Shown: positions 10,462-51,638 of the stretch, in pieces
Layout: each line of letters begins with the position of its first letter
Position numbering within the stretch: position 1 is the first letter of the stretch
NCBI GenBank assembly: GCA_035259385.1
Contig: DATFWL010000130.1
Location: forward strand, 33,319-97,318
Direction of reading: 5' to 3'
Length of the DNA stretch: 64,000 bases
Source of the DNA: Vicinamibacterales bacterium
GTDB taxonomy: Bacteria > Acidobacteriota > Vicinamibacteria > Vicinamibacterales > CAVVIG01
Notes under the pieces: model-generated
Told to the model about the DNA's origin: nothing
The model's input: only the letters and a program-made list of their open reading frames with translations
Database searches by the model: none
Program-made: the position numbers and the translations under genes

Positions 10462-10470
10462 GATCAGAAA

Positions 10471-10638: not shown

Positions 10639-10645
10639 GTCTGCC

Positions 10646-11945: not shown

Positions 11946-12043
11946 TTCTGCCTTCCTGCCGTGCTTCCTGCCTTTCTGCCTTCCTGCCCTGAATTCCTGC
12001 CTTCCCGCCTTCCTCCTTCCAGCCTTCCTCCTTCCGGCCTTGC
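11946..12043. repeat. degenerate direct tandem repeat of ctgccttc-type words (about 12 units, pyrimidine-rich strand)
   Basis: Read directly: ttctgccttcctgccgtgcttcctgcctttctgccttcctgccctgaattcctgccttcccgccttcctccttccagccttcctccttccggcc. No opposing arm was seen. It lies between two co-directional genes. Confidence 0.85.
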
Positions 12044-13169: not shown

Positions 13170-13278
13170 TTAAGAATTAAGAAGTAAGAATTAAGAATTC
13201 GTGAACACGGCTCTCCGCTGCCGATTGTCTTGACAGCGTGCCACGAATTCTTAATTCTTAATTCCTAATTCTTAATTG
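13168..13278. repeat. AT-rich word hairpin (arms aattaagaattaagaagtaagaattaagaattcgtg / cacgaattcttaattcttaattcctaattcttaatt)
   Basis: About 35-nt arms built from 7-nt aagaatt words with GAATTC at the inner ends. A GC-normal loop of about 40 nt. Same family as 33007-33106 and 5652-5680. Confidence 0.9.
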
Positions 13279-13285
13279 CGCGCGA

Positions 13286-17261: not shown

Positions 17262-17345
17262 ACGCTCGGCTAAAGCCTCGCGCTACGCCGTAGAAGCTGG
17301 CGCTTCTCGCGCGGTGCAGCTAGCCCCCAGCCCCGAGCCCCGACT
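17262..17345. repeat. composite element: reversed GTAGCGCGA-type core plus gcagctagcccccagccccgagcccc arm
   Basis: aagcctcgcgctacg is the reverse complement of the REP-like core. cagctagcccccagccccgagcccc is the exact reverse complement of the left arm at 10471-10495. Confidence 0.8.
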
Positions 17346-17374: not shown

Positions 17375-17932
17375 ATGAGGAAGGTGCTGCGCCTGCTGCC
17401 GCTCGCCATCGTCGCGTGCGGGCTCGTCGCCGGCCCGGCTGCCGCCCAGACCTCGACCGAACTCAAGGTCGGTGATCAGGCGCCGGACTTCACCCTTCAG
17501 GCCACTGACGGCAAGACCTACACCTTGAGCAGTCTCAAGGGCAAATGGGTCGTGCTGGCGTGGTTCCCGAAGGCGTTCACGGCCGGTTGAACGGCCGAAT
17601 GCAACTCGCTCCGTGAGAGCGGGGGACTGATTCGGAAGTTCGACGCGGCGTACTTCATGATCAGCGTCGACACCCTGGCCGACAACAAGGCGTTCGCCGA
17701 GAAAGAGCACGCCGACTTCCCGATGCTCGCGAACCCGGACAAGAAGGTGGCCTTTGCGTACGGCGTGATTCCCGCCGACGCGTCGCCGGAGCGCCAGTTC
17801 GCGCGTCGTTACACCTTCTACATCGATCCGACCGGCAAGATCGCGGACATCGACAAGGCGGTGAAGCCGGCCACATCCGGCCAGGACATCGTCACGCACC
17901 TGGAAGCGTTGAAGGTTCCGGAAAAGAAGTAG
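17375..17932 (+). CDS. peroxiredoxin (BCP/PrxQ-like, AhpC/TSA family), secreted; probable selenoprotein with UGA-encoded Sec at the peroxidatic position
   Basis: Track ORFs 17375-17590 and 17657-17932 are in the same frame, separated by a single TGA (17588-17590). Read-through gives …WFPKAFTAG[U]TAECNSL…, which is PxxxTxx[C] with TGA at the catalytic Cys. The downstream part (…ISVDTLADNKAFAEKEHADFPMLANPD…YTFYIDPTGKI…) is typical Prx. A SECIS-like hairpin follows. Confidence 0.7.
17595..17635 (+). promoter_or_regulatory. putative bacterial SECIS stem-loop
   Basis: Starts 5 nt after the UGA. Lower stem CCGAAU/AUUCGG, internal loop, 7-bp upper stem CUCGCUC/GAGCGGG (one G-U pair), and a 5-nt apical loop CGUGA lying 22-26 nt after the UGA. 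Confidence 0.55.
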
Positions 17933-26311: not shown

Positions 26312-26317
26312 CGAATG

Positions 26318-26396
26318 GACGTAGCGCGAAGGCCTTGGCCGAGCGACCGTGTGATCGCGGCCCGCTGACACTCGGCTGAAGCCTTCGCGCTACGTC
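26318..26396. repeat. REP-like hairpin with perfect 16-nt arms GACGTAGCGCGAAGGC / GCCTTCGCGCTACGTC
   Basis: Read directly. The inner part also pairs (ggccgagcg … cactcggc). The right arm plus flank is near-identical to the core at 10553-10578. Confidence 0.9.
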
Positions 26397-26480
26397 GATA
26401 CGGAAAATCCGCGCAGCGGCGGGCAACGACGCGTTCGACGTCTGTGCGTGGCTGCTGCCAGAGTGGACAATGCTCTAGTC

Positions 26481-33000: not shown

Positions 33001-33006
33001 CACAGC

Positions 33007-33106
33007 AATCAAGAATTAGGAAGTAAGAATTAAGAATTCGTGGCTCGCATTGTGATGCATCGAAGCACAGGACGAATTCTTAATTCTCAATTCTTACTTC
33101 TTAATT
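33007..33106. repeat. AT-rich word hairpin (aatcaagaattaggaagtaagaattaagaattcgtg … gacgaattcttaattctcaattcttacttcttaatt)
   Basis: Same arm family as 13168-13278 but with an unrelated loop. The right arm supplies the last two codons and stop of the serine hydrolase gene. Confidence 0.9.
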
Positions 33107-34534
33107 TCTCCGTTCCGGCACTCCCGGCATCAGCTCCTCCAGCGCGCGCTTCAATGCCTCCATCCCGCGCCGATCGCCTCGATAATGGCCCATGCGCACG
33201 ACGACCAGATCGTGCGTCGGATCGATGATCGTGCGCTGTCCGCCGGCACCGTTGGCGAAGTATGCCGACTTCGGGAGCGGCCATGCGCCGTCCCCGTTCA
33301 CCCAGAACAAGCCGCCGTACACCGGCTGCTTCCAGGCAGGCGCCGGCGTGCTCACGAACGTCGCCCACCCTTCTGGCAGCAGGCGCTGGCCCTCCCAGAT
33401 GCCGTCCTGCAGATAGAGCTGTCCGATGCGCGCCCAGTTGCGCGCGGTGCCGTAGTCGTAGCCGGTGAGCAGGAAGTTGCCGTACGGATCGGTCTCGAGC
33501 ACCTGACGGCGGATCCCGATGCGATCGAACAGCGCGCGCTGCGGCCACGTCAGGTACTCCTCGCCGCGCCTGGTGACCGCCTGCTTCACGAGCCAGCCGA
33601 TCATCAGCGGATCGGAGTTGCGGTAGCGCCCTTCCGTATTTGGCGGGAACTGCAGCGGGCGCGTCATCGAATGATCGAACGCGTCGATCGCCCCGGTGTA
33701 GATCAGCGTGTGATCGGGGTAGCCCTTGTCGACGCTGTAGTCGGGATCCTGGCCGGCGATGAACCGCAGGCCGCTGCTCATGTGGAGCAGGTCGGCGATC
33801 CGGATCGCTCCGCGCGGATCGCCCGGCTTCCGCCACTCCGGGACCGGCACCGGATCGTCGACCTTGTAAACGCCGTCCTTCACGAGCAGCGCGAACAGTG
33901 TCGCGGTCAGGCTCTTGCCCATCGACCAGCTTTCGAGCTGCGTGTCCTTCGTGATGCCGGGCATGTAGCGCTCGCCGACGATCTGACCCTTGTGGACGAT
34001 CACGACCGCCGCCGTGAGCGCCTCGGGATCGGCGAACGCGAGATCGAGCGCCTTGTCGACGCGCGCGCGATCCATGCCGGTTGGCGCGGCATGCGTCGGC
34101 GGCGCGTCGCCCATCGGCCACGGCTGTGACGCCGCGTCGGGCAGGCGCGTCTTCACCGCGACCGGCGTGAAGGAGATGCCGTCGTGCCCCTCGGGATGGA
34201 TGATGCAGCCCTGATCGCCGTAGAACTTCGCGATGCGCGCGATCGAACCGTGCGTCATCCGCACCAGCTTCTGTGCGCGATCGACCGTGTAGCGGACGCC
34301 GGCGCGATGCTCGTCGGGGAAGAGAAAGTAGCCGCTGTTCGTGAAGGCTTCCGCCGGATCGCGCTCGGAGACGAACACCGCGGAGCACAGCACCTTGGCG
34401 TAACCGGCAAGGCCGAGGCTGAGCGGCGTGATCCCTTCCGGCGCAAAGGCCGCCGGCCGCCGCGGCGCGGCCTGCCGCGCGACTGCCGACGCCGTGAACG
34501 CGACAACGAGCAACAGCAGCGTTAGTTTGCGCAT
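33101..34534 (-). CDS. serine hydrolase, beta-lactamase/transpeptidase-like family
   Basis: Signal peptide MRKLTLLLLVVAFTASAVA. SxxK motif in ESWSMGKSLTATLFALLV. The length and other blocks fit class C / esterase EstB-like proteins. Confidence 0.85.
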   Translation of the reverse strand: MRKLTLLLLVVAFTASAVARQAAPRRPAAFAPEGITPLSLGLAGYAKVLCSAVFVSERDPAEAFTNSGYFLFPDEHRAGVRYTVDRAQKLVRMTHGSIARIAKFYGDQGCIIHPEGHDGISFTPVAVKTRLPDAASQPWPMGDAPPTHAAPTGMDRARVDKALDLAFADPEALTAAVVIVHKGQIVGERYMPGITKDTQLESWSMGKSLTATLFALLVKDGVYKVDDPVPVPEWRKPGDPRGAIRIADLLHMSSGLRFIAGQDPDYSVDKGYPDHTLIYTGAIDAFDHSMTRPLQFPPNTEGRYRNSDPLMIGWLVKQAVTRRGEEYLTWPQRALFDRIGIRRQVLETDPYGNFLLTGYDYGTARNWARIGQLYLQDGIWEGQRLLPEGWATFVSTPAPAWKQPVYGGLFWVNGDGAWPLPKSAYFANGAGGQRTIIDPTHDLVVVRMGHYRGDRRGMEALKRALEELMPGVPERRN

Positions 34535-35307: not shown

Positions 35308-36099
35308 ATGGCGCGAGGTGTATTCCGAGAGATGCTGGCCGAGTTCTTCGGCACGTTCACCCTGATCGTCTTCGGCGTCGGCGTCGTCGCGCAGGCGGTG
35401 CTGAGCCGGAACAGCGCCGGATCGTATCTGTCGATCAACATCGCCTGGGGACTCGCGGTCGCGATGGGATGCTACGTGTCGGCCGGCGTGACCGGCGCGC
35501 ACCTGAACCCGGCGGTGACGCTCGCGCTCGCCACACGCCGGGGGTTCCCGTGGAACAAGGTCGCGCCATATGCGCTCGCGCAGGTCGCGGGCGCGTTCAT
35601 CGCGTCGGCCGTCGTCTTCGTCACCTATCACGAGGCACTCAGCGCCTTCGACGGCGGCGTGCGCCAGGTCGCCGGCGCGCAGGGCACCGCCGGAATCTGG
35701 GCGACCTATCCGCAGCCGTTCCTGAGCACGCTCGGCGGATTCGTCGATCAGGTCGTCGGCACGGCGCTGCTCGTCTCGGTGATCTTCGGCATCACCGACA
35801 GCCGAAATTCGCCGGCGCCGGCGGGTCTTGCGCCGGTCGTCGTCGGCCTGCTGGTCGTGCTCATCGGCGCGACGTTCGGCTTCAATTCCGGCTATGCGAT
35901 CAATCCGGCGCGAGACTTCGGGCCGCGGCTGTTCACGTTCGTCGCCGGCTGGGGCGGCGGGGTCTTCACTGCGGGGAACGGGTGGTGGTGGGTGCCGATC
36001 GTGGCGCCGTGTGTGGGCGGCGTACTCGGGGCGTGGGTCTACGACGCGCTCGTCGGCGACCGGTTCCCCGTGCGGCAAGGGGCAGCGGAGATCGCGTAG
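35308..36099 (+). CDS. glpF: MIP family channel, aquaglyceroporin (GlpF-like)
   Basis: MARGVFREMLAEFFGTFTLIVFG…; both NPA boxes are present (HLNPAVTLA and NPARDFGPRL, the NPARD form typical of glycerol facilitators). Confidence 0.88.
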   Translation: MARGVFREMLAEFFGTFTLIVFGVGVVAQAVLSRNSAGSYLSINIAWGLAVAMGCYVSAGVTGAHLNPAVTLALATRRGFPWNKVAPYALAQVAGAFIASAVVFVTYHEALSAFDGGVRQVAGAQGTAGIWATYPQPFLSTLGGFVDQVVGTALLVSVIFGITDSRNSPAPAGLAPVVVGLLVVLIGATFGFNSGYAINPARDFGPRLFTFVAGWGGGVFTAGNGWWWVPIVAPCVGGVLGAWVYDALVGDRFPVRQGAAEIA

Positions 36100-36252
36100 G
36101 GACGGGGCCCGGGGCTCGGGGCAAGCTGATGCTCGCCTTCCGTTTCTGGGCGAGCGAACACCGGGGCCGCCGCGCTGTGACAGCTAGCCCCTAGCCCCAG
36201 CCCTTGGCCCCGTCATGCTGTGACAGCTAGCCCCCAGCCCCCCTAGCCCCGA
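36100..36252. repeat. G-rich word hairpin family (gacggggcccggggctcggggcaagctg … cagctagcccctagccccagcccttggccccgtc, plus a second cagctagcccccagcccccctagcccc copy)
   Basis: Arms are imperfect reverse complements. The cagctagcccc… arm is shared with 10607-10638 and 17318-17343. Confidence 0.85.
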
Positions 36253-36263
36253 CTCGCGCAGCG

Positions 36264-39398: not shown

Positions 39399-41012
39399 AT
39401 GCGTTCGTTGTTGTCGGCGATCCTGAAAAGCTGCATTACAACCCTCATCGCGTTCATCGTCGCCGAGGCGGGCCTGCGCGCAGCCTACACCGCGCGCAAC
39501 GCGATGGTCCGGCGCATTCCGTTGCCATACTCCGTCGGCGACGACTACGGTCCGATACCGCCGTGGCTCGATCGCATGCTGATTCTCGTGCCGGACGATC
39601 GACTGATCTGGCACAACCTGCCGAACGCGCATCACACCTACGTCGACATTTTCAGTCCGGCGCCGACCGACGCGTCGCGGATCGCGCTCCTGCGCCGCTT
39701 CAACCCGGCGCTGCCGGCTGAATTTCGCGACAGCCCGACGTGGACCATCACGCTCAACTCGCAGGGATTTCGCAGCGGCGAGTTCGGTGCGCCCCGCGCC
39801 GGCGCGCTTCGCGTCGCGTGCATCGGCGACTCGTGGACCTTCGGTATGAACGTCGAGCAGGACCGAACCTATCCGAGCCGGCTGCTCGCTGATCTTCGCG
39901 CCGCGCGAGCAGACGTGGAGGTCGAGAATTTCGGCGTCCTCGGCTACTCGTCGTTTCAGGGCCTGGAGCTCCTGAAGGCGCGCGTCCTCGACCGGCATCC
40001 CGACGTCGTCGCGATCGGATTCGGGATGAACGATTCCGAAGTGGCCGGGTACCGGGACCGCGACATGGTGTCGGCATCGCGTCCGCCGGTCGGCACACGG
40101 CTCCGCGAGGAGGCGGAGGAGCTCGAGCTCTACAAGCTGTTGAAGTACCTGGCGCTGACCCTCCGCTTCCATCCAAAGCCGATGGACGTTTTCCTGCGCG
40201 AGCAATCGAGAGATCGCGGATCCGGATCGGTCGACTACAGCACGATCGAGCCGTGGACACGCGTGTCCCCGCAGAACTTCGAGTCGAACCTGCGCGAGAT
40301 GATCGCTCTGTCGCGGTCGACGGGCGCAGCCGTGATCCTGCTCGACAACGAGCTGTGGGCCGAGAGCCCGTATCGCACGCTTCTGAAAACCGTCGCCGCC
40401 GATACCAGGGTGCCGCTCGTCGACAGCCTGCAGCTCGTTAGCGACGCGCGCGCGAAAATGGAGCGCGCCATCGAAGCCCGTCTCGGCCTCGCCGCCCCTC
40501 CCGCCCCTCCTGCCCCTCCCGCCCTTCCTGCCCAAACCACCGTCATCTTCCGCGTCGCCAGAGGTCGATACGCCGTCCCGCGCGCGATCTCGATCGCCGG
40601 CACCGATCCCCAGCTTGGAGACGCGTCACCGAACACCGTGCTGATGCACGACGATGGGAAAGGCGGAGACGAGCGGGCGGGCGACGACGTCTGGAGTCTC
40701 GAGGCGACGTTCGCCGCGGGAACGCATCTTTCTTACGTGTACACGAACAGCGGGACGCCAGGGCGCTGGGAAGGGCTCGACGTCCCGCACATCCGCACCG
40801 TCGTCATTCCCGCATCTCCGGACGGCGCGCCGGTCTACCTGCCGATTGAAACGTTCGGCGAGATCTATATGCAGGCCGACGACTGGCACACCAACGCGGC
40901 CGGGTACGAGCTGATCGCGAGGGCAGTGGCCGACGCGATCGGCACGACGGTCCGGCCGAAGCCGGACCGTGCCGCAGTCAGGCGCGGCCGCAGCCGCATC
41001 GCCGGATCGTGA
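39399..41012 (+). CDS. SGNH/GDSL hydrolase family protein with a C-terminal beta-rich (possibly carbohydrate-binding) domain
   Basis: N-terminal TM segment. Block I RVACIGDSWTFG. Later blocks GFGMNDS and DxxH-like. Pro/Ala linker (APPAPPAPPALPA), then …DVWSLEATFAAGTHLSYVYTNSG…. Confidence 0.8.
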   Translation: MRSLLSAILKSCITTLIAFIVAEAGLRAAYTARNAMVRRIPLPYSVGDDYGPIPPWLDRMLILVPDDRLIWHNLPNAHHTYVDIFSPAPTDASRIALLRRFNPALPAEFRDSPTWTITLNSQGFRSGEFGAPRAGALRVACIGDSWTFGMNVEQDRTYPSRLLADLRAARADVEVENFGVLGYSSFQGLELLKARVLDRHPDVVAIGFGMNDSEVAGYRDRDMVSASRPPVGTRLREEAEELELYKLLKYLALTLRFHPKPMDVFLREQSRDRGSGSVDYSTIEPWTRVSPQNFESNLREMIALSRSTGAAVILLDNELWAESPYRTLLKTVAADTRVPLVDSLQLVSDARAKMERAIEARLGLAAPPAPPAPPALPAQTTVIFRVARGRYAVPRAISIAGTDPQLGDASPNTVLMHDDGKGGDERAGDDVWSLEATFAAGTHLSYVYTNSGTPGRWEGLDVPHIRTVVIPASPDGAPVYLPIETFGEIYMQADDWHTNAAGYELIARAVADAIGTTVRPKPDRAAVRRGRSRIAGS

Positions 41013-41777: not shown

Positions 41778-43366
41778 GGCGGGGTCACCCTCCACTGTCT
41801 CTCCATCCAGCGCGCGAGCGCCGCCAGCGGCAGCGACATCGCCAGATACAGCGCCGCGCACAGCGAGCCGGGGATCACCCAGCTGCCGAGATTGGTCGCG
41901 AAGATCTGCGTCTGCTTGGTGAGCTCGAGCACGGTGAGCACCGATACCAGCGATGAGTCCTTCAGCATCGCCACGAAATCGTTGGTCATCGGCGCGAGCG
42001 CGAGCCGGAACGCCTGCGGCGCGCGCACCAGCGTGAGCACCTGCCGCTCGCTGAGGCCGAGCGTCCGCGCCGCCTCGAGCTGCCCGACCGGGATCGCTTC
42101 CAGCGCAGACCGGTAGATCTCGCTCTCGTACGCCGCGTAGTTCAGCGCGAGGCCGAGCAGCGCCGCCGCGAACGCCGGCAGTCGAATCGCGGCGGCGAGG
42201 CCGTAATAGAGGACGAACAGCTGGAGCAGGATCGGCGTGCCGCGGATCAGCTCGACGTAGGCGGTGAGCGCGATCCGCGCCGGCCGTGCGCCGTACACGC
42301 GCCCGGTGGCAATCAGGACGCCGACGGCGATCGCGAGGCCCATCGACAGGCACGACAGCAGGATCGTGATCGCGGACGCGCGAAAAAGCGACGGCAGATA
42401 GCGCTTCGTCGCCTCCCACTTCGACATCGTCGCGGCGCTCGACGAGGTGTCGAACCCGACGACCGGCGCGATCGGCTCGCCTGCCAGGACCCGCGCGTAC
42501 AGCTTCGGCTGGTCGTCGTTCCAGACGCGCCACTTGCGGAAGATCCGCTCGAGCGTGCCGTCTTTCATCGCGCCGCGCAGCATCTCGTTGAGCGTGTCGC
42601 GGAGCGGCCCGTTCTGCGGCGCCAGAATCGCGACGTAGTGGCCGACCGCAATCGTTTCGGGCAGCACGGTGAAGCCGCCCATCATCCGGTGGCGCCGTTC
42701 GGCGAGCACGTTGTCGAGCAGCACCGCGTCGACCCGGCCGATCGCGAGATCGGAGTAGGGGTGGACGTCGTCTTCGTACGAAAGCGGCTGCAGGCCGTGC
42801 TCCTGCTGCGCGCGCAGCAGGATCTCGTAGGCGATGGTCCCGCCGAGCGTGGCCACGCGCTTGCCGCGAAGGTCCGCGAGCGAATGCACGCGCGCCGCGT
42901 CGGCGTCGCGGACGCTCAGCACTTCGCGGAATTCGTAGTACGGCATCGAGACCGCGAGCGTGGCGCGGCGCGCCGGCGTGTCCTCGATGCCGCTCAGGCC
43001 GACATCGGCGTCGCCGCGCCCGATGCTCTGGTCGATCGACTCGAACCGGATGTTGACGAACTCGGTGGATCGGCCGAGTGCGCGCGCGAACAGGTCCGCG
43101 ATCTCGACGTCGAAGCCAACCAGTTGATCGGGATGCGACGGATCCGCTTCGACGAACGGCGCGCCGCCTTCGGGATCGCCGGCCCAGCGCAGCACCCGCG
43201 GCTCCGCTGCGCGTGAGAGCGCAGAGATGGCAGAGAGCGCGGACGCAGAGGGCGCAGACGCGGAGGCCGTCGCAAGGAACAGGCAGGTCACGAAGCGCAG
43301 AACCGCGGTCTTCGGGAACTTTCGCGTCTTCGCGCCTTCGTGAGAGGCCACACCGCGTGCGGACAC
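41774..43366 (-). CDS. fused amino acid ABC transporter substrate-binding (family 3) and permease protein
   Basis: SBP_bac_3-like N-terminal half (…[18 protein letters not shown]…[13 protein letters not shown]…). His/Glu/Gln/Arg-type permease C-terminal half (…[18 protein letters not shown]…). The first ~45 codons lie in a word repeat or hairpin, so the true start may be GTG near 43291. Confidence 0.8.
43213..43342. repeat. word repeat (gcagaga/gcgcagac type) plus cacgaag…cttcgtg hairpin, inside the 5' end of the permease ORF
   Basis: Read directly. On the coding strand it translates to the low-complexity stretch [18 protein letters not shown]. It shares the cacgaag word with 49051-49133. 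Confidence 0.75.
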
Positions 43367-43395
43367 TGTTGTAGATTCTACGCGGAGGCGTTTCG

Positions 43396-44244
43396 ATGGC
43401 GACTGTGGGATTTCTCGGAACCGGATTGCTGGGCAGCGGCATGGTCGAACGGATGCTGCGCCAGGGAAACGTGGTGACGGTGTGGAATCGAACGGCGTCG
43501 AAAGCGCGCGCGCTCGAGCCGCTCGGCGCGAAGGTCGCGCCGACGCCCGGCGGCGCGGTTGCCGGGGCCGAGCGCGTACACATGACGCTGCCTGACGATG
43601 CCGTCGTCGAGCAGATCGTCGAGAGCATCCGCGGCGATCTGCGGGCGGACGCGATCGTGATCGATCACTCGACGACGTCGCCGCGCGGAACGGCGGCTCG
43701 CGTTCCGCGGCTGAATGCCGCCGGCGTCAGGTTCCTGCACGCGCCGGTGTTCATGTCGCCGCAGATGGCGCGCGACGGCGTCGGCATCGTCCTGGCATCC
43801 GGTCCGCGCGACCTCTTCGAGGACGCACGGCCGGCTCTGGAGCAGATGACCGGCGAGGTCTGGTACGCCGGCGAGCAGCCCGATCGCGCCGCAGCCTACA
43901 AGATTTTCGGCAACTCGATGCTGTTCGTGATTGCCGCCGGCGTCGCCGACGTGTTCGCGATGGCAAAGGGCCTGGACATCCCGCCGGCCGACGCGCTCGC
44001 AGTGTTCTCGAAGTTCCAGCCGGCGGGCGTGATCAGGTCGCGCGGCGAGAAGATGGCGCGCGGCGATTTCAGCGCCACCTTCGAGCTGTCGATGGCGCGC
44101 AAGGACCTGCGGCTGATGCTGGAAGCGGCCGGCGAGCAGCCGATGGCTGTGCTGCCGGCGATCGCCGCGCGCATGGACGACGCGATCGCGAAGGGTCACG
44201 GGCGGGAGGATCTGGGAGTCATCGCGGCGGATGTCGTTCGATGA
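43396..44244 (+). CDS. NAD(P)-dependent oxidoreductase (3-hydroxyisobutyrate / 6-phosphogluconate dehydrogenase-like)
   Basis: Rossmann start MATVGFLGTGLLGSGMVERML. 282 aa, typical of the HIBADH family. Confidence 0.85.
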   Translation: MATVGFLGTGLLGSGMVERMLRQGNVVTVWNRTASKARALEPLGAKVAPTPGGAVAGAERVHMTLPDDAVVEQIVESIRGDLRADAIVIDHSTTSPRGTAARVPRLNAAGVRFLHAPVFMSPQMARDGVGIVLASGPRDLFEDARPALEQMTGEVWYAGEQPDRAAAYKIFGNSMLFVIAAGVADVFAMAKGLDIPPADALAVFSKFQPAGVIRSRGEKMARGDFSATFELSMARKDLRLMLEAAGEQPMAVLPAIAARMDDAIAKGHGREDLGVIAADVVR

Positions 44245-44327
44245 CGGCGGGTCAGGCGGGTCGGGCAGGTCGGGCAGGATGGGACGGACGGGACGGATGG
44301 GACGGATCGGACGGATGGGACAGATGT
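44245..44327. repeat. direct word repeat (gggtcaggc/gggtcgggca, then gggacgga x5)
   Basis: Read directly, immediately after the oxidoreductase stop. If translated it gives GRMGRTGRMGRIGRMG at the head of the longest amidohydrolase ORF. Confidence 0.85.
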
Positions 44328-44359
44328 TGCGGAACGGACTGATGGGGCGGACGGGCAAA

Positions 44360-45763
44360 ATGGCGGCGGTCTGGCTCGGTCTGACCGTTGCCGTTGCTGC
44401 GCTGACAGGTCAATCGAATCCGGCTGCCCCGGCGAATTTCGTCACCGTGCAGGCGCCGGTGATTGCGTTGACCCACGCGCGCGTGATCGACGGGACCGGG
44501 GCGGCGCCGCGCGAGGATCAGACGATCGTGATCCGCGACGGCAACATCGCCGACGTCGGCGGCGCCGCGTCGATCGCCGTTCCACCTGGCGCGACGGCCG
44601 TCGATCTCTCGGGAAAGACGGTGATCCCCGGCCTCGTGATGATGCACGAGCATCTCTACTACACGACCGGACCTGGCGTGTACGGTCAGCTCGGCGCCAG
44701 CTTCACGCGCCTGTACCTCGCCGGCGGTGTCACGACGATGCGCACGGCGGGCAACGTGAACGGGATCATGGACATCAACCTCGCGCGCCGGATCGCGGCG
44801 GGGGAGCTGCCGGGCCCCGCCGTCGATGCGACCGCTCCGTACGTGAACGGGCCGAGCGCGTTCCTGCAGATGCATTCGGTCACCAACGCCGACGAGGCCC
44901 GCCGTCACGTGGCCTACTGGGCCGACCAGGGCGCGACGTCGCTCAAGGCGTACATGCAGGTCTCGCGCGCCGCGCTCAAGGCCGCTATCGACGAAGGGCA
45001 TCGGCGCGGCATGAAGACCACCGGTCATCTGTGCTCGGTGACGTTTGCCGAGGCCGCGGATCTCGGGATCGACAACCTGGAGCACGGGTTCTTTCCCGCC
45101 ACCGATTTCGTCGCCGACAAGCAGCCCGACGTCTGTCCCGGGCAGGCGCGCGGGCAGCAGACGATCGCGGAGCTCGACGAGCACGGGGCGCCGCTCGCCG
45201 CGCTCGTGAAGAAGCTCGTCGACAAGCACGTGGCGCTGACGTCGACGTTGACCGTATTCGAAACCTTGACGCCGGGACGGCCATTGCCGCCAGGACTCGA
45301 CGTGCTGGTGCCGCAGCTCAAGGACAGCTTCCAGCGCGCCTACGATCGCGCGCAGCAGAACCAGCAATCGCTCTACGCGGCGCTCCTGCCGAAGGCGATG
45401 CGCATGGAGCGCGCGTTCGTGCGCGCCGGCGGACTGCTGATCGCCGGCACCGATCCCACAGGCGCCGGCGGCGTCGTGCCCGGCTACTCGAATCAACGGC
45501 AGGTCGAGCTGCTGGCCGAAGAAGGCTTCACGCCGGTCGAGGCGATCTCGATCGCGACGCTGAACGGCGCGAAATTCATGGGCCGCGATGCTCGCATCGG
45601 GAGCATCGCCCGCGGCAAACAGGCCGACCTGGTGGTCGTCTCCGGGAATCCTGCGGCGTCGATCGGCGACATCCGGAAGGTCGAAACGGTTTTCCGGAAC
45701 GGAGTCGGTTACGATTCCGGGAAACTGATCGCCTCGGTCCGTGGTCAGGTCGGGATCTGGTGA
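44360..45763 (+). CDS. amidohydrolase family protein (secreted)
   Basis: Start at ATG 44360 (MAAVWLGLTVAVAALTG, a signal peptide). IPGLVMMHEHL (HxH). …AGTDPTGAG…GKQADLVVVSGNP. Paralogous in fold to 3657-5651. Confidence 0.85.
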   Translation: MAAVWLGLTVAVAALTGQSNPAAPANFVTVQAPVIALTHARVIDGTGAAPREDQTIVIRDGNIADVGGAASIAVPPGATAVDLSGKTVIPGLVMMHEHLYYTTGPGVYGQLGASFTRLYLAGGVTTMRTAGNVNGIMDINLARRIAAGELPGPAVDATAPYVNGPSAFLQMHSVTNADEARRHVAYWADQGATSLKAYMQVSRAALKAAIDEGHRRGMKTTGHLCSVTFAEAADLGIDNLEHGFFPATDFVADKQPDVCPGQARGQQTIAELDEHGAPLAALVKKLVDKHVALTSTLTVFETLTPGRPLPPGLDVLVPQLKDSFQRAYDRAQQNQQSLYAALLPKAMRMERAFVRAGGLLIAGTDPTGAGGVVPGYSNQRQVELLAEEGFTPVEAISIATLNGAKFMGRDARIGSIARGKQADLVVVSGNPAASIGDIRKVETVFRNGVGYDSGKLIASVRGQVGIW

Positions 45764-45829
45764 TGCGCGAGCAGTCGATAGCCGTGCAGGCATGACCGGC
45801 GGCTATCGGACCCGTGCAGCGGAGGGTAC

Positions 45830-47758
45830 ATGTCGACACCACGCAGCGACCGCGAGCTCGGTCTCAACAGGCGCATTCCGCGGCGCGACTTTCTGAACGG
45901 CGTCGCGATTGGCATCAGCGGCGCGTATGCCGCCGCGACCGTGCGATCGCTCGATGCGATGTCGATGCCCGCGTCCGGCGCCCGCGACGCCCAGGCCGCC
46001 GCGGCCGTGCCCTATCCGCCGGCGCGGAGCGGATTACGGGGGAACTATCCCTCGTCGGTCGCGGCGTTCGCGCCGATGGACGCCGGCGTCTACCGGCAGT
46101 TTCCGCCGCTCGACGCCGACACGCAGGAGGCGTACGACCTCGTCATCGTCGGCGGCGGCATCTCCGGGCTGGCGGCAGCGCATTTCTGGCGACGCGCGCT
46201 CGGTGACCGGCAGAAGATCCTCGTCCTCGACAACCACGACGACTTCGGCGGCCACGCCAAGCGCAATGAGTTCGAGTACCAGGGCCGTACGTTCCTCAGC
46301 TACGGCGGCACGATGAGCATCGCGACGCCGTATCCGTACAGCTACGCGTCGAAGCGGCTCATCGAAGAGCTCGGTATCCAAGTGGAGAGGAGCGCCGAAT
46401 TCCAGAACCGCGACGCGTTTCAGAAGCTGAATCTCGGGCCGTCGATGTTCTTCGACAAGGAACATTTCGGCGAGGACACGCTGGTTGCCGGCACCGGTCG
46501 GATCCCGTGGCCCGAGTTCATCGCGAAGGTGCCGCTGCCCGAACCGGCACGCCGCGATCTCGTGCGCCTGTACGGCAAGAACCCCGACTACCTCGCGGGC
46601 AAGACGGCGGACCAGAAGATGGCGCTGCTCGCGCGAATCAGCTGGGAGGAGTTCCTGCTGCGCCACGCGAAGGTGAGCCCGGAGGCGATCCTGTTCTTCC
46701 GGGGGCAGGGCGGACGCAACAACAAGCGGGTGGACACCACGCCGGCGCTCGAAGCGGCGCGGCGCGGCTCGGTCGGCTTCAACGGCCTCGGTCTCACGTT
46801 CGCTGGCGAGGCGTTCCGCGAGGCCTCGTACACGTTCCATTTCCCGGACGGCAACGCGTCGATCGCGCGCCTCCTCGTCGCCCGGCTCGTGCCGGCGGCG
46901 TTCGGCGGCCGCGCGATGACCATGGACAGCGTCGTGAAGGCGCCGCTCGACTACGGCGCGCTCGACGCGGCGGCTTCGCCGGTCCGCGTCCGCCTCGAGA
47001 GCACGGTGGTCCGCGTGCAGCACGACGGCGCGCCCGAGCACGCGACAGGCGTCCGCGTCGCGTACCTGCGCGGCGGCAAGGTGCATGGCGTGCGCGCCGC
47101 GAACGTGATCCTCGCGTGCTACAACGCGATCATCCCGGCGCTGCTGCCCGAGCTTCCCGACGCGCAGAAAGCGGCGCTGCGCTACCCGGCCAAGGTGCCG
47201 ATGATGTACACGAACGCGCTCCTCCGGCGGTGGACGCCGTTCGCCAAGCTTGGCGTGCAGAGCGTCAACTCGCCGTGCATGCTGCACACCGGCATGAGCC
47301 TCGACGCGGCCTCGACCGTGGGCGGCTATCAGGGAGTCACGGCGCCGGAGGAGCCGATCGTCGTGCACATGACGTCGAATCCAAACAAGCCGGGGCTGCC
47401 GCGGCGCGAGCAGAACCGCGCCGGCGCGGAACAGCTGCTGAAGACGACGTTCGAGGAGTTCGAGCGCGAGGTGCGCGGCCATCTCGCGCGCGCGCTCGCC
47501 GGCGGCGGCTTCGATCCCGCCGCCGACATCGTCGGGCTGACGGTGAACCGGTGGCCGTACGGATACGCCTACAGCTACGACTCGCTCGGCGATCCCGACG
47601 TGCCGCCGGAGGAGCGGCCGCACGTCGTCGGCCGGCGCCGCTTCGGCCAGGTCGCGATCGCGAACTCGGACGCGGGCGCCGCCGCGTTCACGAACCAGGC
47701 GATCGACGAAGCGCACCGCGCGGTGGAAGAGCTGTTCGTGAAGAACGGCCTCACGTAG
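45830..47758 (+). CDS. NAD(P)/FAD-dependent oxidoreductase with Tat signal (spermidine dehydrogenase SpdH-like)
   Basis: Twin-arginine motif IPRRDFLNGV. Dinucleotide fold YDLVIVGGGISGLAAAHFW. …LDNHDDFGGHAKRNEF…. Confidence 0.8.
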   Translation: MSTPRSDRELGLNRRIPRRDFLNGVAIGISGAYAAATVRSLDAMSMPASGARDAQAAAAVPYPPARSGLRGNYPSSVAAFAPMDAGVYRQFPPLDADTQEAYDLVIVGGGISGLAAAHFWRRALGDRQKILVLDNHDDFGGHAKRNEFEYQGRTFLSYGGTMSIATPYPYSYASKRLIEELGIQVERSAEFQNRDAFQKLNLGPSMFFDKEHFGEDTLVAGTGRIPWPEFIAKVPLPEPARRDLVRLYGKNPDYLAGKTADQKMALLARISWEEFLLRHAKVSPEAILFFRGQGGRNNKRVDTTPALEAARRGSVGFNGLGLTFAGEAFREASYTFHFPDGNASIARLLVARLVPAAFGGRAMTMDSVVKAPLDYGALDAAASPVRVRLESTVVRVQHDGAPEHATGVRVAYLRGGKVHGVRAANVILACYNAIIPALLPELPDAQKAALRYPAKVPMMYTNALLRRWTPFAKLGVQSVNSPCMLHTGMSLDAASTVGGYQGVTAPEEPIVVHMTSNPNKPGLPRREQNRAGAEQLLKTTFEEFEREVRGHLARALAGGGFDPAADIVGLTVNRWPYGYAYSYDSLGDPDVPPEERPHVVGRRRFGQVAIANSDAGAAAFTNQAIDEAHRAVEELFVKNGLT

Positions 47759-47855
47759 GTCGGGTGGGTCAGGTAGGTCGGTAAGTCAGGTAGGTCGGAT
47801 CAAGGCGTATCCGACCTACAAGGCCGACCCGGCCTACCTGACCTACCCGACCTAC
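47757..47855. repeat. word hairpin (ggtcgggtgggtcaggtaggtcggtaagtcaggtaggtcggat … atccgacctacaaggccgacccggcctacctgacctacccgacctac)
   Basis: About 40-nt arms made of ggtcaggta-type 8-nt words, with a short loop caaggcgt. It spans the whole gap between convergent stops and overlaps both. Confidence 0.9.
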
Positions 47856-48991
47856 TGCGCTGCGGTGCTTCGCGTCGGCGCCGGCTTCAGCTGCAGCTTC
47901 TGCACGCGCCAGTTGAGCAGCTCGGCGACGTAGATCTCGTTCTCGCTCGGGCACGCGATCTCGTGGATCCAGCCGAACTGCTTCAGCTGATGGCCCGACC
48001 GTCCGAGCTGTCCGAGCACCTTCCCGTCGGGAACCGACAGCTTGTAGACGCGGCCGGGGAACGCGTCGCTGCTGTACAGGAACTGCTGCCCCTGTGCGTT
48101 CGGCGGGGTCACGCAGATCGCCCATGGCGCGCCGGGGGCCATCGTGCCGGCTCCGGGTGGCGCGTTGGGCGCGAGCAGCGCCGCGACGTCCGGCTTCGCG
48201 CCCATCCATGGCATCGCGTCGGGCGGCGCCGTCGCGTCGATCTTGATCTCGCGCACGAACGTGTTGGTCTTCGGATCGATCACCTGGATGCGGCGGTTGC
48301 CGCGATCGCCGACGTAGATGTTGCCCTTCGCATCGTAGGAGATCGTGTGCGGCGTGTTCAGCTTGCCGAGCTCGCCGCCGCCGGGCTCGCCGATCGAGGC
48401 CACCCAGTCGCCGTCCTTCGTGAACTTCGCGACGCGCGAGTTGATGTAGCCGTCGCTGATGTAGATGTTGCCGTCGGTGTCGAACGCGACGTCGGTCGGC
48501 TGGCGGAACTGTCCCGGAACCGGCGGCCGCGGCGGGGTCACGCGCTCCCAGGGCTCGGCCTTGTCGGACGCTTCCTTCTTGCGTCCGAACACCATCGTGA
48601 CGTGTCCCTCCGGGTTGAAGCGGACGATCATGTCGGAGCCTTTGTCGATCGCCCAGAGGTTGTCGTCCTTGTCGAAGCGGATCGCGTGCGCGTAGGACCA
48701 CGCGTAGACGCCTTTGCCGATCTCCTTCACGAACTTGCCGGTCTTGTCGAACAGGAGAATCTGCGACGCGGTGGCGCCGTACGCGGGACCGCCGGCGCTG
48801 TTCGACCGCGTGTAGACGGCGACGTCGCCCTTCGAATTCACGGCGACGCCCGACGCTTCGCCGAAGTTCATGTCGGGCGGCAGCTTGAGGAAGTTGGGGA
48901 CGGAATCGAACGGAATCTCGGGAATCGACGGCTGCTGCGCGAACGCCGCCGGCGTGAGGATGACGACGATTGCGAGGACCCACTTTTTCAC
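47852..48991 (-). CDS. NHL repeat-containing six-bladed beta-propeller protein (secreted)
   Basis: GTG start gives MKKWVLAIVVILTPAAFAQ. NHL repeats (…IYVGDRGNRRIQVIDPKTNTF…, …IYISDGYINSRVAKFTKDGDW…). Alternative ATG start at 49027. Confidence 0.85.
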   Translation of the reverse strand: MKKWVLAIVVILTPAAFAQQPSIPEIPFDSVPNFLKLPPDMNFGEASGVAVNSKGDVAVYTRSNSAGGPAYGATASQILLFDKTGKFVKEIGKGVYAWSYAHAIRFDKDDNLWAIDKGSDMIVRFNPEGHVTMVFGRKKEASDKAEPWERVTPPRPPVPGQFRQPTDVAFDTDGNIYISDGYINSRVAKFTKDGDWVASIGEPGGGELGKLNTPHTISYDAKGNIYVGDRGNRRIQVIDPKTNTFVREIKIDATAPPDAMPWMGAKPDVAALLAPNAPPGAGTMAPGAPWAICVTPPNAQGQQFLYSSDAFPGRVYKLSVPDGKVLGQLGRSGHQLKQFGWIHEIACPSENEIYVAELLNWRVQKLQLKPAPTRSTAAQ

Positions 48992-49050
48992 GGTCGCCTC
49001 TCTTTCGCGTGGCCGGATCAGGTGCATGAACGCGGCAGTATAGCGCCAGC

Positions 49051-49133
49051 GCCGCCACGAAGGCACGAAGACGCGAAGAAGACCATTTGAGTACAAAAGT
49101 ATTTTCTTCGCGCCTTCGTGTGTTCGTGGCGGC
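49051..49133. repeat. word hairpin (gccgccacgaaggcacgaagacgcgaagaa … ttcttcgcgccttcgtgtgttcgtggcggc)
   Basis: Arms of about 30 nt built from cacgaag-type words, with an AT-rich loop. It lies between co-directional genes (DAHP synthase stop and NHL start). Confidence 0.9.
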
Positions 49134-49160
49134 AAAAAATGCCGAGCGGTCGTGAGTCCG

Positions 49161-50216
49161 TCAACCGCGCGCCCGGCGCGCGCGCGCCAACGTTTTCAGC
49201 AGCGGCTCGGTCTGCGCGAGCGACAGACAGGCGTCGGTGATGCTCTGACCGTAAACGGCCGGCTGGCCGGGGACGTAATCCTGTCGTCCCTCGACGAGAT
49301 GGCTCTCGATCATCGCGCCGAAGATCTGGCGCGACCCGCCCGCGATCTGTTCGGCGATCGCGGACGCGACCTCCGGCTGCCGCAGGTGATCCTTGTGGCT
49401 GTTGCCGTGCGAGCAGTCGACCATCACGCTTTCGCGAAGGCCCTTCGCGACGAGCCGCGCGCACACCTTGGCGATGTGATCGGCGTCGTAATTCGGTCCG
49501 GTGCGGGTGCCGCCGCGGAGGATCACGTGGCAGGAGTCGTTGCCCGAGGTCTGGAAGATCGCCGACACGCCCTGCTTGGTCACCGACGGGAACCAGTGCG
49601 GCGATCGCGCGGTCATCACGGCGTCGACGGCGATCTGGGTGCTGCCGTCGGTGCTGTTCTTGAAGCCGACCGGCATCGACAGCCCCGACGCGAGCTCGCG
49701 GTGGACCTGGCTTTCCGCCGTGCGCGCGCCGATCGCCACCCACGAGGTGAGGTCGGCGATGTGCTGCGGAATCTGCGTGTCGAGGAATTCCGAGCCGGTC
49801 GGCAGGCCGAGGTCGTTGACGTCGAGCAGCAGCTGGCGCGCCAGGCGGAGTCCCTTGTTGATGTGGAAGCTCTCGTCGAGATCGGGATCGTTGATCAGCC
49901 CCTTCCACCCGACCACGGTGCGCGGCTTCTCGAAGTAGGTGCGCATGACGATCAGGAGGTCGTCGGACAGCCGATCGGCGATCGCCTTCAGGCGCCCGGC
50001 GTACTCGAACGCCGCGCGCGTATCGTGGATCGAGCACGGGCCGGCGACCACGACCAGCCGCGAGTCGGCGCCGGCGATGATGTTCGCGATCGCCGCGCGC
50101 GCATCGGCCACGACGTTCGAGGCGCGCTCGCTGATCGGGATTTCCTCCAGCAGGATCGCCGGCGGGATCAGCGGACGCACGTCCCGGATGCGCAGGTCGT
50201 CGGTTGGTCGAATCAT
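49161..50216 (-). CDS. aroG: 3-deoxy-7-phosphoheptulonate (DAHP) synthase, class I
   Basis: 351 aa from ATG 50214-50216. …RLVVVAGPCSIHD…KPRTVVGWKGLINDP…HGNS motifs of AroF/G/H-type enzymes. Which isoenzyme (feedback specificity) cannot be told from the sequence. Confidence 0.9.
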   Translation of the reverse strand: MIRPTDDLRIRDVRPLIPPAILLEEIPISERASNVVADARAAIANIIAGADSRLVVVAGPCSIHDTRAAFEYAGRLKAIADRLSDDLLIVMRTYFEKPRTVVGWKGLINDPDLDESFHINKGLRLARQLLLDVNDLGLPTGSEFLDTQIPQHIADLTSWVAIGARTAESQVHRELASGLSMPVGFKNSTDGSTQIAVDAVMTARSPHWFPSVTKQGVSAIFQTSGNDSCHVILRGGTRTGPNYDADHIAKVCARLVAKGLRESVMVDCSHGNSHKDHLRQPEVASAIAEQIAGGSRQIFGAMIESHLVEGRQDYVPGQPAVYGQSITDACLSLAQTEPLLKTLARARRARG

Positions 50217-50284: not shown

Positions 50285-50653
50285 ATGCCGTTCCTCATCC
50301 GGCTGCTGGTCAACGCAGCGGCGCTCTGGGTGGCCACCGCGATCGTGCCGGGGGTGACCTACACCGGCGGACCGCTGCCGCTGTTCGGCGTCGCGCTCGT
50401 CTTCGGGATCATCAACGCGACGCTGCGCCCGCTGGCGAAGATCCTCACCTTTCCGCTGATCATCGTCACGCTCGGGATCTTCGCGCTCGTCATCAACGGG
50501 CTGATGCTGTGGCTGACCAGCTCGCTGTCCGACGCGCTCGGCCTCGGGTTCCACGTCAGCGGCTTCTGGCCCGCGTTCTGGGGCGCGCTGGTCGTGAGCC
50601 TCGTCAGTCTCGCGCTGTCTCTGGCGATCCGCGACGTCGCAAGTGAGCGCTGA
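50285..50653 (+). CDS. phage holin family protein (4-TM superfamily IV, PF04020-like membrane protein)
   Basis: MPFLIRLLVNAAALWVATAIVPGV…FGIINATLRPLAKILTFPLIIVTLGIFALVINGLMLWLTS is the characteristic pattern. 122 aa. Confidence 0.75.
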   Translation: MPFLIRLLVNAAALWVATAIVPGVTYTGGPLPLFGVALVFGIINATLRPLAKILTFPLIIVTLGIFALVINGLMLWLTSSLSDALGLGFHVSGFWPAFWGALVVSLVSLALSLAIRDVASER

Positions 50654-50700
50654 CGAAAAGCAACCGCAGAGAACGCGGAGAGTGCTTTTCTTCTCCGTGT
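50654..50700. repeat. small hairpin with cgcagaga/cgcggaga words (gaaaagca … tgcttttc; ggaga … tctcc)
   Basis: Read directly. It fills the gap between convergent stops. Confidence 0.7.
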
Positions 50701-51638
50701 CACCAGGGCATCTGACGTTTGGTGTATTCGCGGCCGATCTGCGCCGCGCGTTCGCTGGCGGGGCCGATCATCACCCCTTCCTTGATCATGTCGACGACGT
50801 TGTCGGCGTTCATCGAGTTCAGGAAGTAGATCTTCGCCGCCTTCGTCGCCGCGAACACCTTCGCGCGGGCCGCCTGCATCTCCTTCGGCATCGGACCCGG
50901 GCCGTTCTTGACGCCGAGCGAGAACGACATGTCGCCGGGGCCCCATTCGGCAAAGCCGACGCCGGGGATCTTCGCGTTGGCGTCGGCGTTCTCGAGCGCG
51001 TACTTGTCTTCGAGCTTCAGCCCGATCAGCAGCTCGCCCTTCGGATTGAGCGGCCAGACGTCCGCCTTCTCGGCGTACTCGTCCGGCGTGATGCCCCAGA
51101 TGCGTGCCGCCGTGGAGTTGCCGTGCACGCCGCGCCGTCCGCCGAACGCAGGGAAGCGGACCGCTTCGACGAAGGCGCGCACCGCGCCGGGCGTATCCGC
51201 GTGGCACAACAGGATCCCGTGCACGCCGGTCGCGAGGACCTGGTGGAACATCCACGCGTTCGCACGGACCGTCGCCTCGTCGGTGCCGTTCACCGGCACG
51301 TTGACGATCACCGCCGGCGTCTTGTGGCCGCTCTTGGTCGGCCCGCCCTTGACCAGCCCCTTCATGTAGTCGGAGAGGCCCTTGACGTCGAACGGCGCGT
51401 GCTCCATGTCGTAGCTGATGTAGTCCGCGTACGTCTGCGCGTCCTTCACCCCCTGCTCGAAGTTGCCGTCGGTTCCCTCGTGCGATCCCGTGTAGTAGAT
51501 CGGTTGCCCCTGCGAGAGCAGATCGATGGCGCGGTTGATGCGTGTCGCCTTCGCTCCGTCCGCGGCGAGGTGCACCATCGCCACGACGAGCGCCATGCCG
51601 ATGCCGATCCCACGCAGGTACTTCGCGGTATGCTTCAT
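50700..51638 (-). CDS. HpcH/HpaI aldolase / citrate lyase family protein
   Basis: GGAGG before ATG 51636-51638. …ADYISYDMEHAPFD…VIVNVP…GILLCHADTP… blocks of the HpcH/HpaI fold. The 733-aa track ORF is an upstream extension antisense to the next gene. Confidence 0.75.
   Translation of the reverse strand: MKHTAKYLRGIGIGMALVVAMVHLAADGAKATRINRAIDLLSQGQPIYYTGSHEGTDGNFEQGVKDAQTYADYISYDMEHAPFDVKGLSDYMKGLVKGGPTKSGHKTPAVIVNVPVNGTDEATVRANAWMFHQVLATGVHGILLCHADTPGAVRAFVEAVRFPAFGGRRGVHGNSTAARIWGITPDEYAEKADVWPLNPKGELLIGLKLEDKYALENADANAKIPGVGFAEWGPGDMSFSLGVKNGPGPMPKEMQAARAKVFAATKAAKIYFLNSMNADNVVDMIKEGVMIGPASERAAQIGREYTKRQMPW

Follow-up and report, generated by a model that had tools for sequence, protein, structure and literature searches.

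A 64,000-nucleotide (nt) stretch from a Vicinamibacterales bacterium (assembly GCA_035259385.1, contig DATFWL010000130.1, positions 33,319 to 97,318; hereafter the window) carries, between two convergent genes, a hairpin at 47751–47855 with arms built of repeated 9-nt words. Our analyses showed that this focal hairpin is one of many palindromic, non-coding elements of about 70–170 nt, which form families specific to the Vicinamibacterales-type lineage of soil Acidobacteriota. Each family is characterized by its own word, or flavour. Family copies are found at many sites and behind stop codons, they are present or absent at orthologous junctions, and their word number changes by whole units. 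Furthermore, the arms have a fixed purine-to-pyrimidine polarity and alternate pairing cores with free spacers. The mode of spread and the function we infer: these might be dispersed REPIN-like palindrome families with tandem-word arms that serve as transcript-end hairpins, an explanation that we prefer and hold with about even confidence.

The focal hairpin

The focal hairpin (flavour GTAGGTCGG/GTGGGTCAG, about five 9-nt words per arm) takes up all of the gap that separates a FAD/NAD-binding oxidoreductase gene (45830–47758, plus strand) from an NHL-repeat gene (47852–48991, minus strand). Its left arm reads, in this order, GTAGGTCGG, GTGGGTCAG, GTAGGTCGG, TAAGTCAG and GTAGGTCGG, and is followed by an 8-nt apical loop and a complementary right arm; an inner stem-loop GTAGGTCGGAT...ATCCGACCTAC lies inside. 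The repeat finder placed the outer arms at 47755–47781 and 47829–47855 (27 nt, 93% complementary), and Tandem Repeats Finder (TRF) reported 9-nt-period arrays at 47751–47798 and 47811–47855. Both stop codons, TAG at 47756–47758 and CTA at 47852–47854, fall within the outermost words of the arms. When folded as RNA, the 121-nt focal stretch reached −86.3 kcal/mol on the plus and −79.7 kcal/mol on the minus strand (z about −9.7 on both), and −42.8 kcal/mol as DNA (z −7.8), which none of 200 shuffles matched. The relatives of the 642-aa protein, whose gene lies just upstream, belong to Acidobacteriota, with the best match (92%) in a Vicinamibacterales metagenome-assembled genome; an origin from Burkholderia, at first assumed on account of the GC content, was rejected on these grounds.

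The window itself stems from a metagenome assembly, one relative contig stops inside an array, and one Logan contig fuses position 47781 to 47829, as could be expected if the elements were sequencing or assembly artefacts or chance palindromes. To this explanation we nevertheless assign a practically negligible probability. DNA of the window is present in soil metagenome runs, and independent Logan contigs from other runs and samples reproduce four elements without gaps: one spans the focal hairpin (47533–47856, 1 difference), a second the hairpin at 49051 (48926–49427, 0 differences), and two others, 43155–43406 and 50561–50781, the elements at 43213–43342 and 50654–50700. The elements are hence no artefacts. 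Moreover, the same architecture is found in hundreds of contigs from many projects, long-read assemblies included. With a strand-symmetric inverted-repeat finder combined with an arm-periodicity score, we counted six periodic-arm hairpins in the window, whereas 30 dinucleotide shuffles gave 0.3 on average and never more than 1. All elements listed in the original prediction, a reading of the letters of the window, lie at or near the coordinates given there, and its focal observation is real.

Polarity and core–spacer structure of the arms

In about 1 Mb of high-GC contigs from relatives we found 254 inverted repeats, 145 of them with periodic arms; removal of near-identical loci (about 0.97 Mb) left 130 periodic hairpins. 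Their words comprise at least 10 distinct flavours, among them AATTNNG, CACGAAR, CGCAGAG, GGGGCTN, GGGGACT, GGCTRAT, CACGGAGGA, GGGATTY and AAGCCKC, typically with three to four words per arm. Three regularities, none of them seen in the original prediction, are arm polarity, the alternation of cores and spacers, and a link to stop codons. The 5′ arm was purine-rich and the 3′ arm pyrimidine-rich in 124 of 127 periodic hairpins (124:3), and outside the AATT family still in 37 of 40 (p = 2e-8), whereas non-periodic inverted repeats were split 37:23. By symmetry, this polarity holds on both strands. Also the two long arrays of the window that consist of direct words only (44245–44355 and 11946–12043) have their purine-rich words on the sense strand.

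Within the arms, the 7-nt cores pair to 95–99%, while the spacers between them (0–2 nt, or the NN of AATTNNG) pair to 28–64%, which is about chance, and vary freely between copies as well as between the two arms of one element. The folded form is thus modeled as a stack of 7-bp helices broken by regular mismatches. This speaks against templated fold-back synthesis, which predicts fully complementary arms; the original prediction had named templated synthesis as a possible generating mechanism. Loops are variable within families, even at an orthologous site with conserved arms. An apical GC-rich hairpin in AATTAAG loops was tried as a further conserved part and rejected, since structure was no greater than in shuffles (median z −0.31) and the loop base showed no covariation. 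Invariant 7-nt cores together with chance-level spacer pairing and strict polarity were not found in the consulted papers on REPs, MITEs (miniature transposable elements with inverted repeats) or microsatellites.

Dispersal and changes in word number

As the original prediction had suggested, the elements share one design; it is not limited to the window, for the same flavours occur in many related contigs. Short-period arrays reached 3.6–8.9 per 10 kb in the window and in loci L008, L010, L012, L013 and L072–L075 (TRF). Periodic hairpins were found in Vicinamibacterales-type loci; the TRF census detected no 6–14-nt array in 48 of 76 loci, and few or none in those of Terriglobia and Bryobacterales. 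The AATTAAG hairpin pattern was recovered from at least 120 metagenome loci, almost all of them soil contigs of 63–71% GC with unrelated flanks. Its words follow the order [C/G]-AATTAAG-AATTNNG-AATTNNG-AATTAAG-AATTCGT, then a loop of 20–50 nt and the mirror image, and 110 of 140 AATTNNG arms had exactly four units. Further non-repeat parts are conserved: AAAGCAACC precedes the CGCAGAG words at 50654–50700 of the window and six times in L188, GGGGCTN arms end inside with AGCTG/CAGCT and AATTAAG arms with AATTCGT/ACGAATT, and CACGAAR words are preceded by CGCC, with GTACAA in several loops. Two to three copies per flavour are found within the 64-kb window and three CGCAGAG copies within about 3 kb of L188, and the copies of a family occupy non-orthologous sites. 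Each flavour is hence a dispersed family and not a free-running microsatellite.

Comparison of orthologous gaps showed both retention and turnover. The AATTAAG element at 33004–33109 is kept at the orthologous gap in L092/L159, where the identity of the flanking proteins is 92% and 87%; its arms are for the most part preserved, and the loop is replaced and 15 nt longer. An inversion between the window and the L092 element was considered, but both orientations align alike (scores 43 and 44), and we make no such claim. At 36099–36263, the window has an element of 165 nt where the stop codons abut in L072 and L075 (TGA|TTA, 0-nt gap), so this is an insertion, or a clean loss in the relatives. Elsewhere in orthologous gaps a strong hairpin was kept and the word flavour switched. 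In L001, a 92% relative, the orthologue of the focal gap holds a hairpin of −75.6 kcal/mol built of GGACGGATG words. Syntenic contigs, retrieved via the NHL protein (84–89% identity), likewise have word hairpins of other words in the gaps that correspond to those of the window: GGCTGAT in three successive gaps of L072, GGCGGGACA and CACGAAA in L075, and GGCAGGA/CGGGCGGGA in L076, which also has a direct (CTTTTAA)x5 array.

The near-identical strains L072, L073 and L074, with flanks 100% identical, differ by exactly 7 or 14 nt inside the arms. In one gap, L073 lacks one 7-nt unit of the left arm; in the next, the left arm of L072 is shorter by 7 nt and its right arm by 14 nt; the third gap is near-identical with one base difference. 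These whole-word differences indicate that slippage acts on the word number, on top of dispersal, and to this extent bear out the slippage proposed from the window alone. In contrast, the opposition of a common generating mechanism to a mobile family, as drawn in the original prediction, does not hold: each flavour is by itself a dispersed family with conserved non-repetitive ends and a stereotyped word number, and the non-orthologous copies as well as the 165-nt element at a 0-nt gap further undo the contrast.

A purely local origin would explain the elements by slippage of 7–9-nt units from a terminator or seed, combined with arm-to-arm template switching, and shared flavours by convergence. 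It is in agreement with the whole-unit indels between near-identical strains, once in both arms, with words that intergrade along arrays, and with the array at 44245–44355, which passes unbroken and in frame into the ATGGGNCGG start of the gene itself, of which relatives have a single unit. Also the reported over-representation of heptamers among bacterial simple sequence repeats, explained by slippage (PMC4692102), and the finding that template switching creates and maintains hairpins (PMC8794818) count for such an origin. We still consider it rather unlikely, because conserved non-repeat ends and a fixed word number recur at unrelated sites and in many metagenome contigs, and the spacers are uncorrelated between arms, the opposite of what template switching would leave. 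Moreover, a 165-nt element stands where relatives have no intergenic base as a seed, and strict purine-to-pyrimidine polarity is not predicted.

Position relative to genes

The distance from stop codon to hairpin base had a median of 8 nt, with 66% of the values between −12 and +15 nt. Periodic hairpins were located in 36 convergent, 55 tandem and 10 divergent gaps, versus 130, 308 and 113 among all gaps, i.e., they are enriched in convergent and depleted in divergent context (chi-square about 11.8 with 2 degrees of freedom, calculated by hand). The claim that the elements are confined to intergenic gaps is only approximately right; exceptions are 43213–43268, which codes for part of a signal peptide, 44245–44355, which runs into the amidohydrolase gene, and stop codons that lie inside arms.

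Some DNA-binding proteins use contiguous 7–8-bp repeats in direct and inverted order, as is the case for ribbon-helix-helix proteins, which bind heptad or 8-bp repeats; a further parallel is that of BIMEs with IHF or gyrase. The elements could accordingly be read as duplex binding arrays, in which 7-bp cores at 7–9-bp spacing form iteron-like sites for a cooperative protein, nucleoid or topology factor, and the hairpin is incidental. Conserved cores with free spacers, a stereotyped unit number of three to four, the lack of compensatory covariation, and a symmetry that comes from sequence conservation rather than pairing would all fit. But at least 10 flavours would require as many proteins, and the position behind stops together with the depletion in divergent, i.e., promoter, gaps is unlike that of operators. 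Polarity, moreover, concerns strand composition, a rule that a duplex-binding protein would not impose. We hence regard duplex binding as decidedly unlikely.

Hairpin-plus-T-run terminators were not above chance in the window (26 versus about 24 expected over 60 kb), and only one consensus terminator coincided with a listed element, inside the truncated 50654–50700. A U-rich 3′ arm is a feature of the AATTAAG flavour only. A Sigma-70-type promoter in AATTAAG arms (TTAAGA-N17-AAGAAT, 8 of 12 by eye) was tried as a candidate and stayed below the threshold of the scan, which reported none. In a comparison with Rfam 15, nothing in the whole window reached the gathering score, and around 13100–13350 there was no match at E <= 10.

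Comparison with known repeats

The closest published analogue are the inverted GGGAATC heptamer arrays of Xanthomonas, described together with the GGGGA(C/T)T arrays of Nostoc as intergenic heptamer arrays (Rehm et al. 2015, PMC4692102). They likewise consist of tandem 7-nt units in the intergenic regions of a GC-rich bacterium, nearer to the 3′ end of the upstream gene, and at 70–75 sites per genome form convergent plus/minus pairs, i.e., inverted repeats with the G-rich arm first. Close relatives differ in array length but agree in the type, single or paired. Our elements show this pattern of intergenic tandem 6–9-nt units, convergent pairs and length differences among relatives. In contrast to the one G-rich flavour of Xanthomonas, which has been read as quadruplex, they come in 10 or more flavours, some of which are AT-rich or G-poor, have conserved non-repeat ends, a fixed word number and mismatched spacers, and belong to the phylum Acidobacteriota.

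As for these arrays, G-quadruplex or i-motif formation could be the essential property, with the G-rich arm affecting transcription or genome stability. A G-run recurs every 7–9 nt in GGGGCTN, GGGGACT and GGGACGGAT, GGGATTC and GGGGATT words occur in L116 and L174, and the Xanthomonas arrays are equally intergenic, near the upstream gene's 3′ end, often convergent inverted pairs and variable in length. However, AATTAAG, CACGAAR, CGCAGAG, GGCTRAT and TAGAACCT words lack G-runs and yet share design, position and polarity, and in paired elements the hairpin competes. Judged by eye from the words, the focal flavour has isolated GGG runs only. A quadruplex function of the elements as a class is therefore very improbable in our view.

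REPINs consist of conserved inverted ends and a less conserved spacer and fold into a long hairpin (Bertels and Rainey 2011, PMC3116915), and REPs, tagged by GTAG/CGTC, are mobilized by RAYT transposases (PMC3733652). REPINs resemble our elements in their size of about 70–110 nt, in the conserved inverted ends around a spacer that is less conserved, and in folding as a long hairpin when DNA is single-stranded or as mRNA; in our elements, arms are conserved, loops variable and the fold is one hairpin; REP/REPIN elements also occur in hundreds of extragenic copies and several families per genome. Unlike in REPs, the word number of our elements changes by slippage, and a RAYT link is not known here. 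The lineage appears to carry classical REPs beside the word hairpins, sometimes at the same orthologous gap, as judged from ordinary GTAG-headed REP-like palindromes at 26312–26402 and 10548–10575 of the window (GACGTAGCGCGAAGGC(C/T)T..GCCGAG and complement), one copy of which is nested in a GGGGCTN hairpin, and from GTAG-headed stem-loops (e.g., GTAGTGTCCGGCTTTAGCCGGACC) that occupy gaps in L072 and L075. A MITE would be flanked by a fixed-length target-site duplication, which these elements lack.

Like intrinsic or bidirectional terminators, the elements form a strong stem-loop a few bases past the stop codon, are enriched between convergent genes and symmetric from both sides, and the center of AATTAAG-flavour elements has an A-rich tract on its 5′ side and a U-rich one on its 3′ side. 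Unlike terminators, most flavours have no U-tract, the stems are longer (25–45 bp), and many elements are located 10–20 nt before the next gene's ribosome-binding site. Cyanobacterial STRR heptamers and the TAACTGA direct repeats of Beggiatoaceae and cyanobacteria (MacGregor 2015, PMC4679880) are similar in being intergenic tandem heptamers of several flavours with a patchy distribution across phyla, and the gaps of relatives are shorter and repeat-free. These, however, are nearly all direct (169 direct sets versus 1 inverted) and mostly located just upstream of start codons, whereas our elements as a rule form an inverted pair that follows a stop codon. Our literature searches on intergenic repeats of Vicinamibacter and Acidobacteria turned up nothing specific on such elements.

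A possible role at transcript ends

Each element consists of a purine-rich 5′ arm with three to five tandem 7-nt cores and 0–2 variable bases between them, a poorly conserved loop, and a pyrimidine-rich 3′ arm that complements the cores but not the spacers. Spread might be REP/REPIN-like, with a trans-acting protein that recognizes the core words on the folded single strand, and replication slippage may afterward alter the word number locally. The host could use, or tolerate, the elements as two-way transcript-end hairpins, i.e., as terminator, 3′-end protector or insulator between convergent and consecutive genes. Pyrimidine-rich RNA forms the weakest class of RNA:DNA hybrid, a property that the U-tract supplies in canonical terminators. 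Since the order of purines and then pyrimidines holds on both strands, the arm made last would be pyrimidine-rich from either side; RNA polymerase arriving from either gene would thus complete the hairpin with pyrimidine-rich RNA, and the weak hybrid could replace the U-tract. Repeated words may supply many nucleation registers for fast folding, and, more speculatively, the regular mismatches may guard against double-strand-specific nucleases or cruciform processing.

Several observations weigh against this explanation. On the side of spread, no fixed-length target-site duplication flanks the elements. Among flanking direct repeats only 4-nt matches exceeded the control (21 versus 8.4), an excess that may stem from the self-complementary AATT ends. 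A Pfam scan of 46 open reading frames (ORFs) of the window revealed no transposase or RAYT family, but ordinary chromosomal genes or ORFs without Pfam match. The arms are direct arrays of 7–9-nt words without internal palindrome, in contrast to REPs, which are imperfect palindromes of 20–40 nt, and a GTAG head occurs in the focal flavour only. The direct array at 44245–44355 could have grown in place, out of the start region of the gene that it runs into. On the side of function, we found no compensatory covariation in the elements, so that selection for pairing as such is unproven. In tandem gaps, the Shine-Dalgarno sequence of the next gene lies within about 15 nt of the hairpin, and the hairpin can therefore be no efficient terminator there unless it contains a promoter. 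A few elements stand in divergent gaps or 5′ coding regions. Finally, RNA runs held at most 11% of the sampled words, as metatranscriptome contigs, in which 3′ ends are not mappable.

A bolder version of the REPIN-like explanation may be formulated, although we think it unlikely. In this lineage, U-tract terminators would have been replaced by a modular, two-way, purine-first element of 7-bp core helices with obligatory mismatches between them, in about a dozen word "alphabets", that a dedicated machinery propagates. Invariant cores and spacers that are random and arm-independent in sequence and length would then be the mark of this machinery, for which a protein reading the cores, or a polymerase recopying a short template with untemplated bases at each jump, might be candidates.

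Vicinamibacterales are among the commonest soil bacteria. Word arrays may break short-read assemblies and could hence be under-represented in metagenome-assembled genomes, given that several syntenic contigs are short-read and that L083 ends inside an array. If the elements mark transcript ends, they would provide a rule for the annotation of operons and 3′ untranslated regions in a phylum in which no canonical terminators were found, and could be used in GC-rich hosts as small insulators that work in both directions. Core, spacer and polarity taken together give a concrete handle on the origin and spread of short palindromic repeats, and whole-word length differences between strains are possible strain markers.

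Individual elements of the window

Full-length hairpins have folding energies of about −34 to −113 kcal/mol; the elements of the window are given here without a strand unless one is stated. The clearest examples were absent from the original prediction. These include two of the AATTAAG family: the hairpin at 13166–13279 starts 6 nt past the stop of a PIG-L gene and has 38-nt arms, 95% complementary, with four words and AATTCGTG per arm, and a second one, 33004–33109, lies between the beta-lactamase-fold and polysaccharide-deacetylase genes. Two more belong to the GGGGCTN flavour. A compound hairpin at 10471–10638, between convergent genes (−112.6 kcal/mol for 10455–10650), encloses a direct GGGGACTN array (10508–10537) and a REP-like GTAGCGCGAAGGCTTCAGCCGAG unit, and the element at 36099–36263, whose 5′ arm is single and whose 3′ arm is duplicated, sits exactly between the convergent stops of the MIP gene and a 141-aa gene. 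At 2901–2979 stands a hairpin whose 22-nt arms are of the GGGCTGGGTTGGGGA type and 95% complementary (2870–3000 folds at −84.8 kcal/mol); its motif CGGTCTT(A/C)CCC(A/T)ACCCA recurs in the hairpin that L001 has in the gap orthologous to the focal one. A solitary AGCCCCN x3 array at 17322–17343, i.e., half an element, lies in the gap upstream of a peroxiredoxin gene.

Among the elements already listed, the CACGAAR-family hairpin at 49051–49133 (30-nt arms, 90% complementary, with an AT-rich loop containing GTACAA) is located between the stop of the DAHP synthase gene (49161) and the point where the NHL-repeat gene starts; the two genes are on the minus strand. The truncated CGCAGAG-family member at 50654–50700 has the family 5′ end AAAGCAACCGCAGAGAACGCGGAGAG and a short 3′ arm, and occupies the 49-nt gap of the convergent holin-like and HpcH-like genes. 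At 372–400, a TAGAACCT x2.6 array with a short hairpin includes the stop codon (384–386) of a MacB/FtsX-type gene on the minus strand; L012 and L061 also have this flavour. A direct array at 11946–12043 (minus strand), in the gap from the stop of the DUF5009 gene to the start of the MFS transporter gene, has about ten words without a partner arm; these read CTTCCTGC on the plus strand, while the sense (minus) strand has the purine-rich GCAGGAAG.

Two elements touch the SBP/permease gene on the minus strand. The GCAGAGR direct array at 43213–43268 encodes part of the signal peptide and is not intergenic; its period is 15 nt and not the 7–9 nt claimed for it. A small CACGAAR hairpin, 43289–43342, stands at the 5′ end of this gene, in the coding n-region if translation starts at a leaderless GTG 43366, or else just upstream of the alternative GTG 43291. 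A promoter-like TCGCCA-16-TAGAAT (43375–43402, minus strand), whose TAGAATCTAC is also found in L072, ends 9 nt before GTG 43366, and on account of this TAGAAT site the sequence suggests a leaderless mRNA that starts at GTG 43366.

At 44245–44355 (plus strand), 9-nt G-rich words grade from GGTCGGGCA to GGATGGGAC in a purely direct array on the sense strand, which runs in frame into the amidohydrolase start, reading ...MGRTGRMGRIGRMG...MGRTGK. Relatives have one ATGGGNCGG unit after a gap of 11–16 nt, so that the unit numbers stand at about 10 versus 1. The change may have gone either way, since GGGACGGAT is itself found as a dispersed flavour (L001).

Two repeats lie within genes, a CCTCCCGCC x5 array of 9-nt period in a GDSL-lipase ORF (40487–40533) and a GCC-rich array of 18-nt period in a DUF2339 ORF (26868–26944). 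Both are coding low-complexity sequence and probably unrelated to the hairpin families.

Occurrence in other contigs and further observations

The focal GTAGGTCRG flavour was seen again in L083, a contig whose end (8832–8944) falls within a (GTAGGTCAG)n array that counts 11 or more units. Hairpins with AATTAAG-type arms also occur in contigs of lower GC content from other organisms, namely L143 (36% GC, marine), L104 and L107 (50% GC), and furthermore L095, L132 and L137 (33–38% GC). L143 shows the full multi-unit AATTAAG design. Both convergence and horizontal spread could account for the hairpins in these contigs. A word hairpin of GGGGATT/GGGATT is located at 9973–10076 of L174, and one of GGGATTC words at 2164–2316 of L116; GGGGATT is the Nostoc heptamer of Rehm et al. 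2015 (PMC4692102). In the viral collection, one contig (L197 692–818, IMG/VR) had the AATTAAG pattern, in two tandem copies, and there was no sign of phage carriage.

The set of genes around the focal gap (43396–49000 of the window) is not the same in all relatives. The 642-aa FAD/NAD-binding gene, which in the window stands between the amidohydrolase and NHL genes, is missing at this place in L072–L076; in L001, the NAD-binding gene is directly followed by the 642-aa gene, without amidohydrolase. Two tandem NHL paralogues are present in L072–L075, versus one in the window.

The AhpC/TSA (PrxQ/BCP-type) peroxiredoxin gene of the window, 17376–17929, is split by an in-frame TGA at 17588–17590. 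The split frame reads ...WFPKAFTAG-TGA-TAECNSLRE, and the two halves match Pfam model positions 1–39 and 43–123. The TGA falls at what we take to be the position of the peroxidatic cysteine in the PrxQ active-site motif and is for this reason a candidate selenocysteine codon. It is followed by a possible stem, CGCTC-cgtga-GAGCG.

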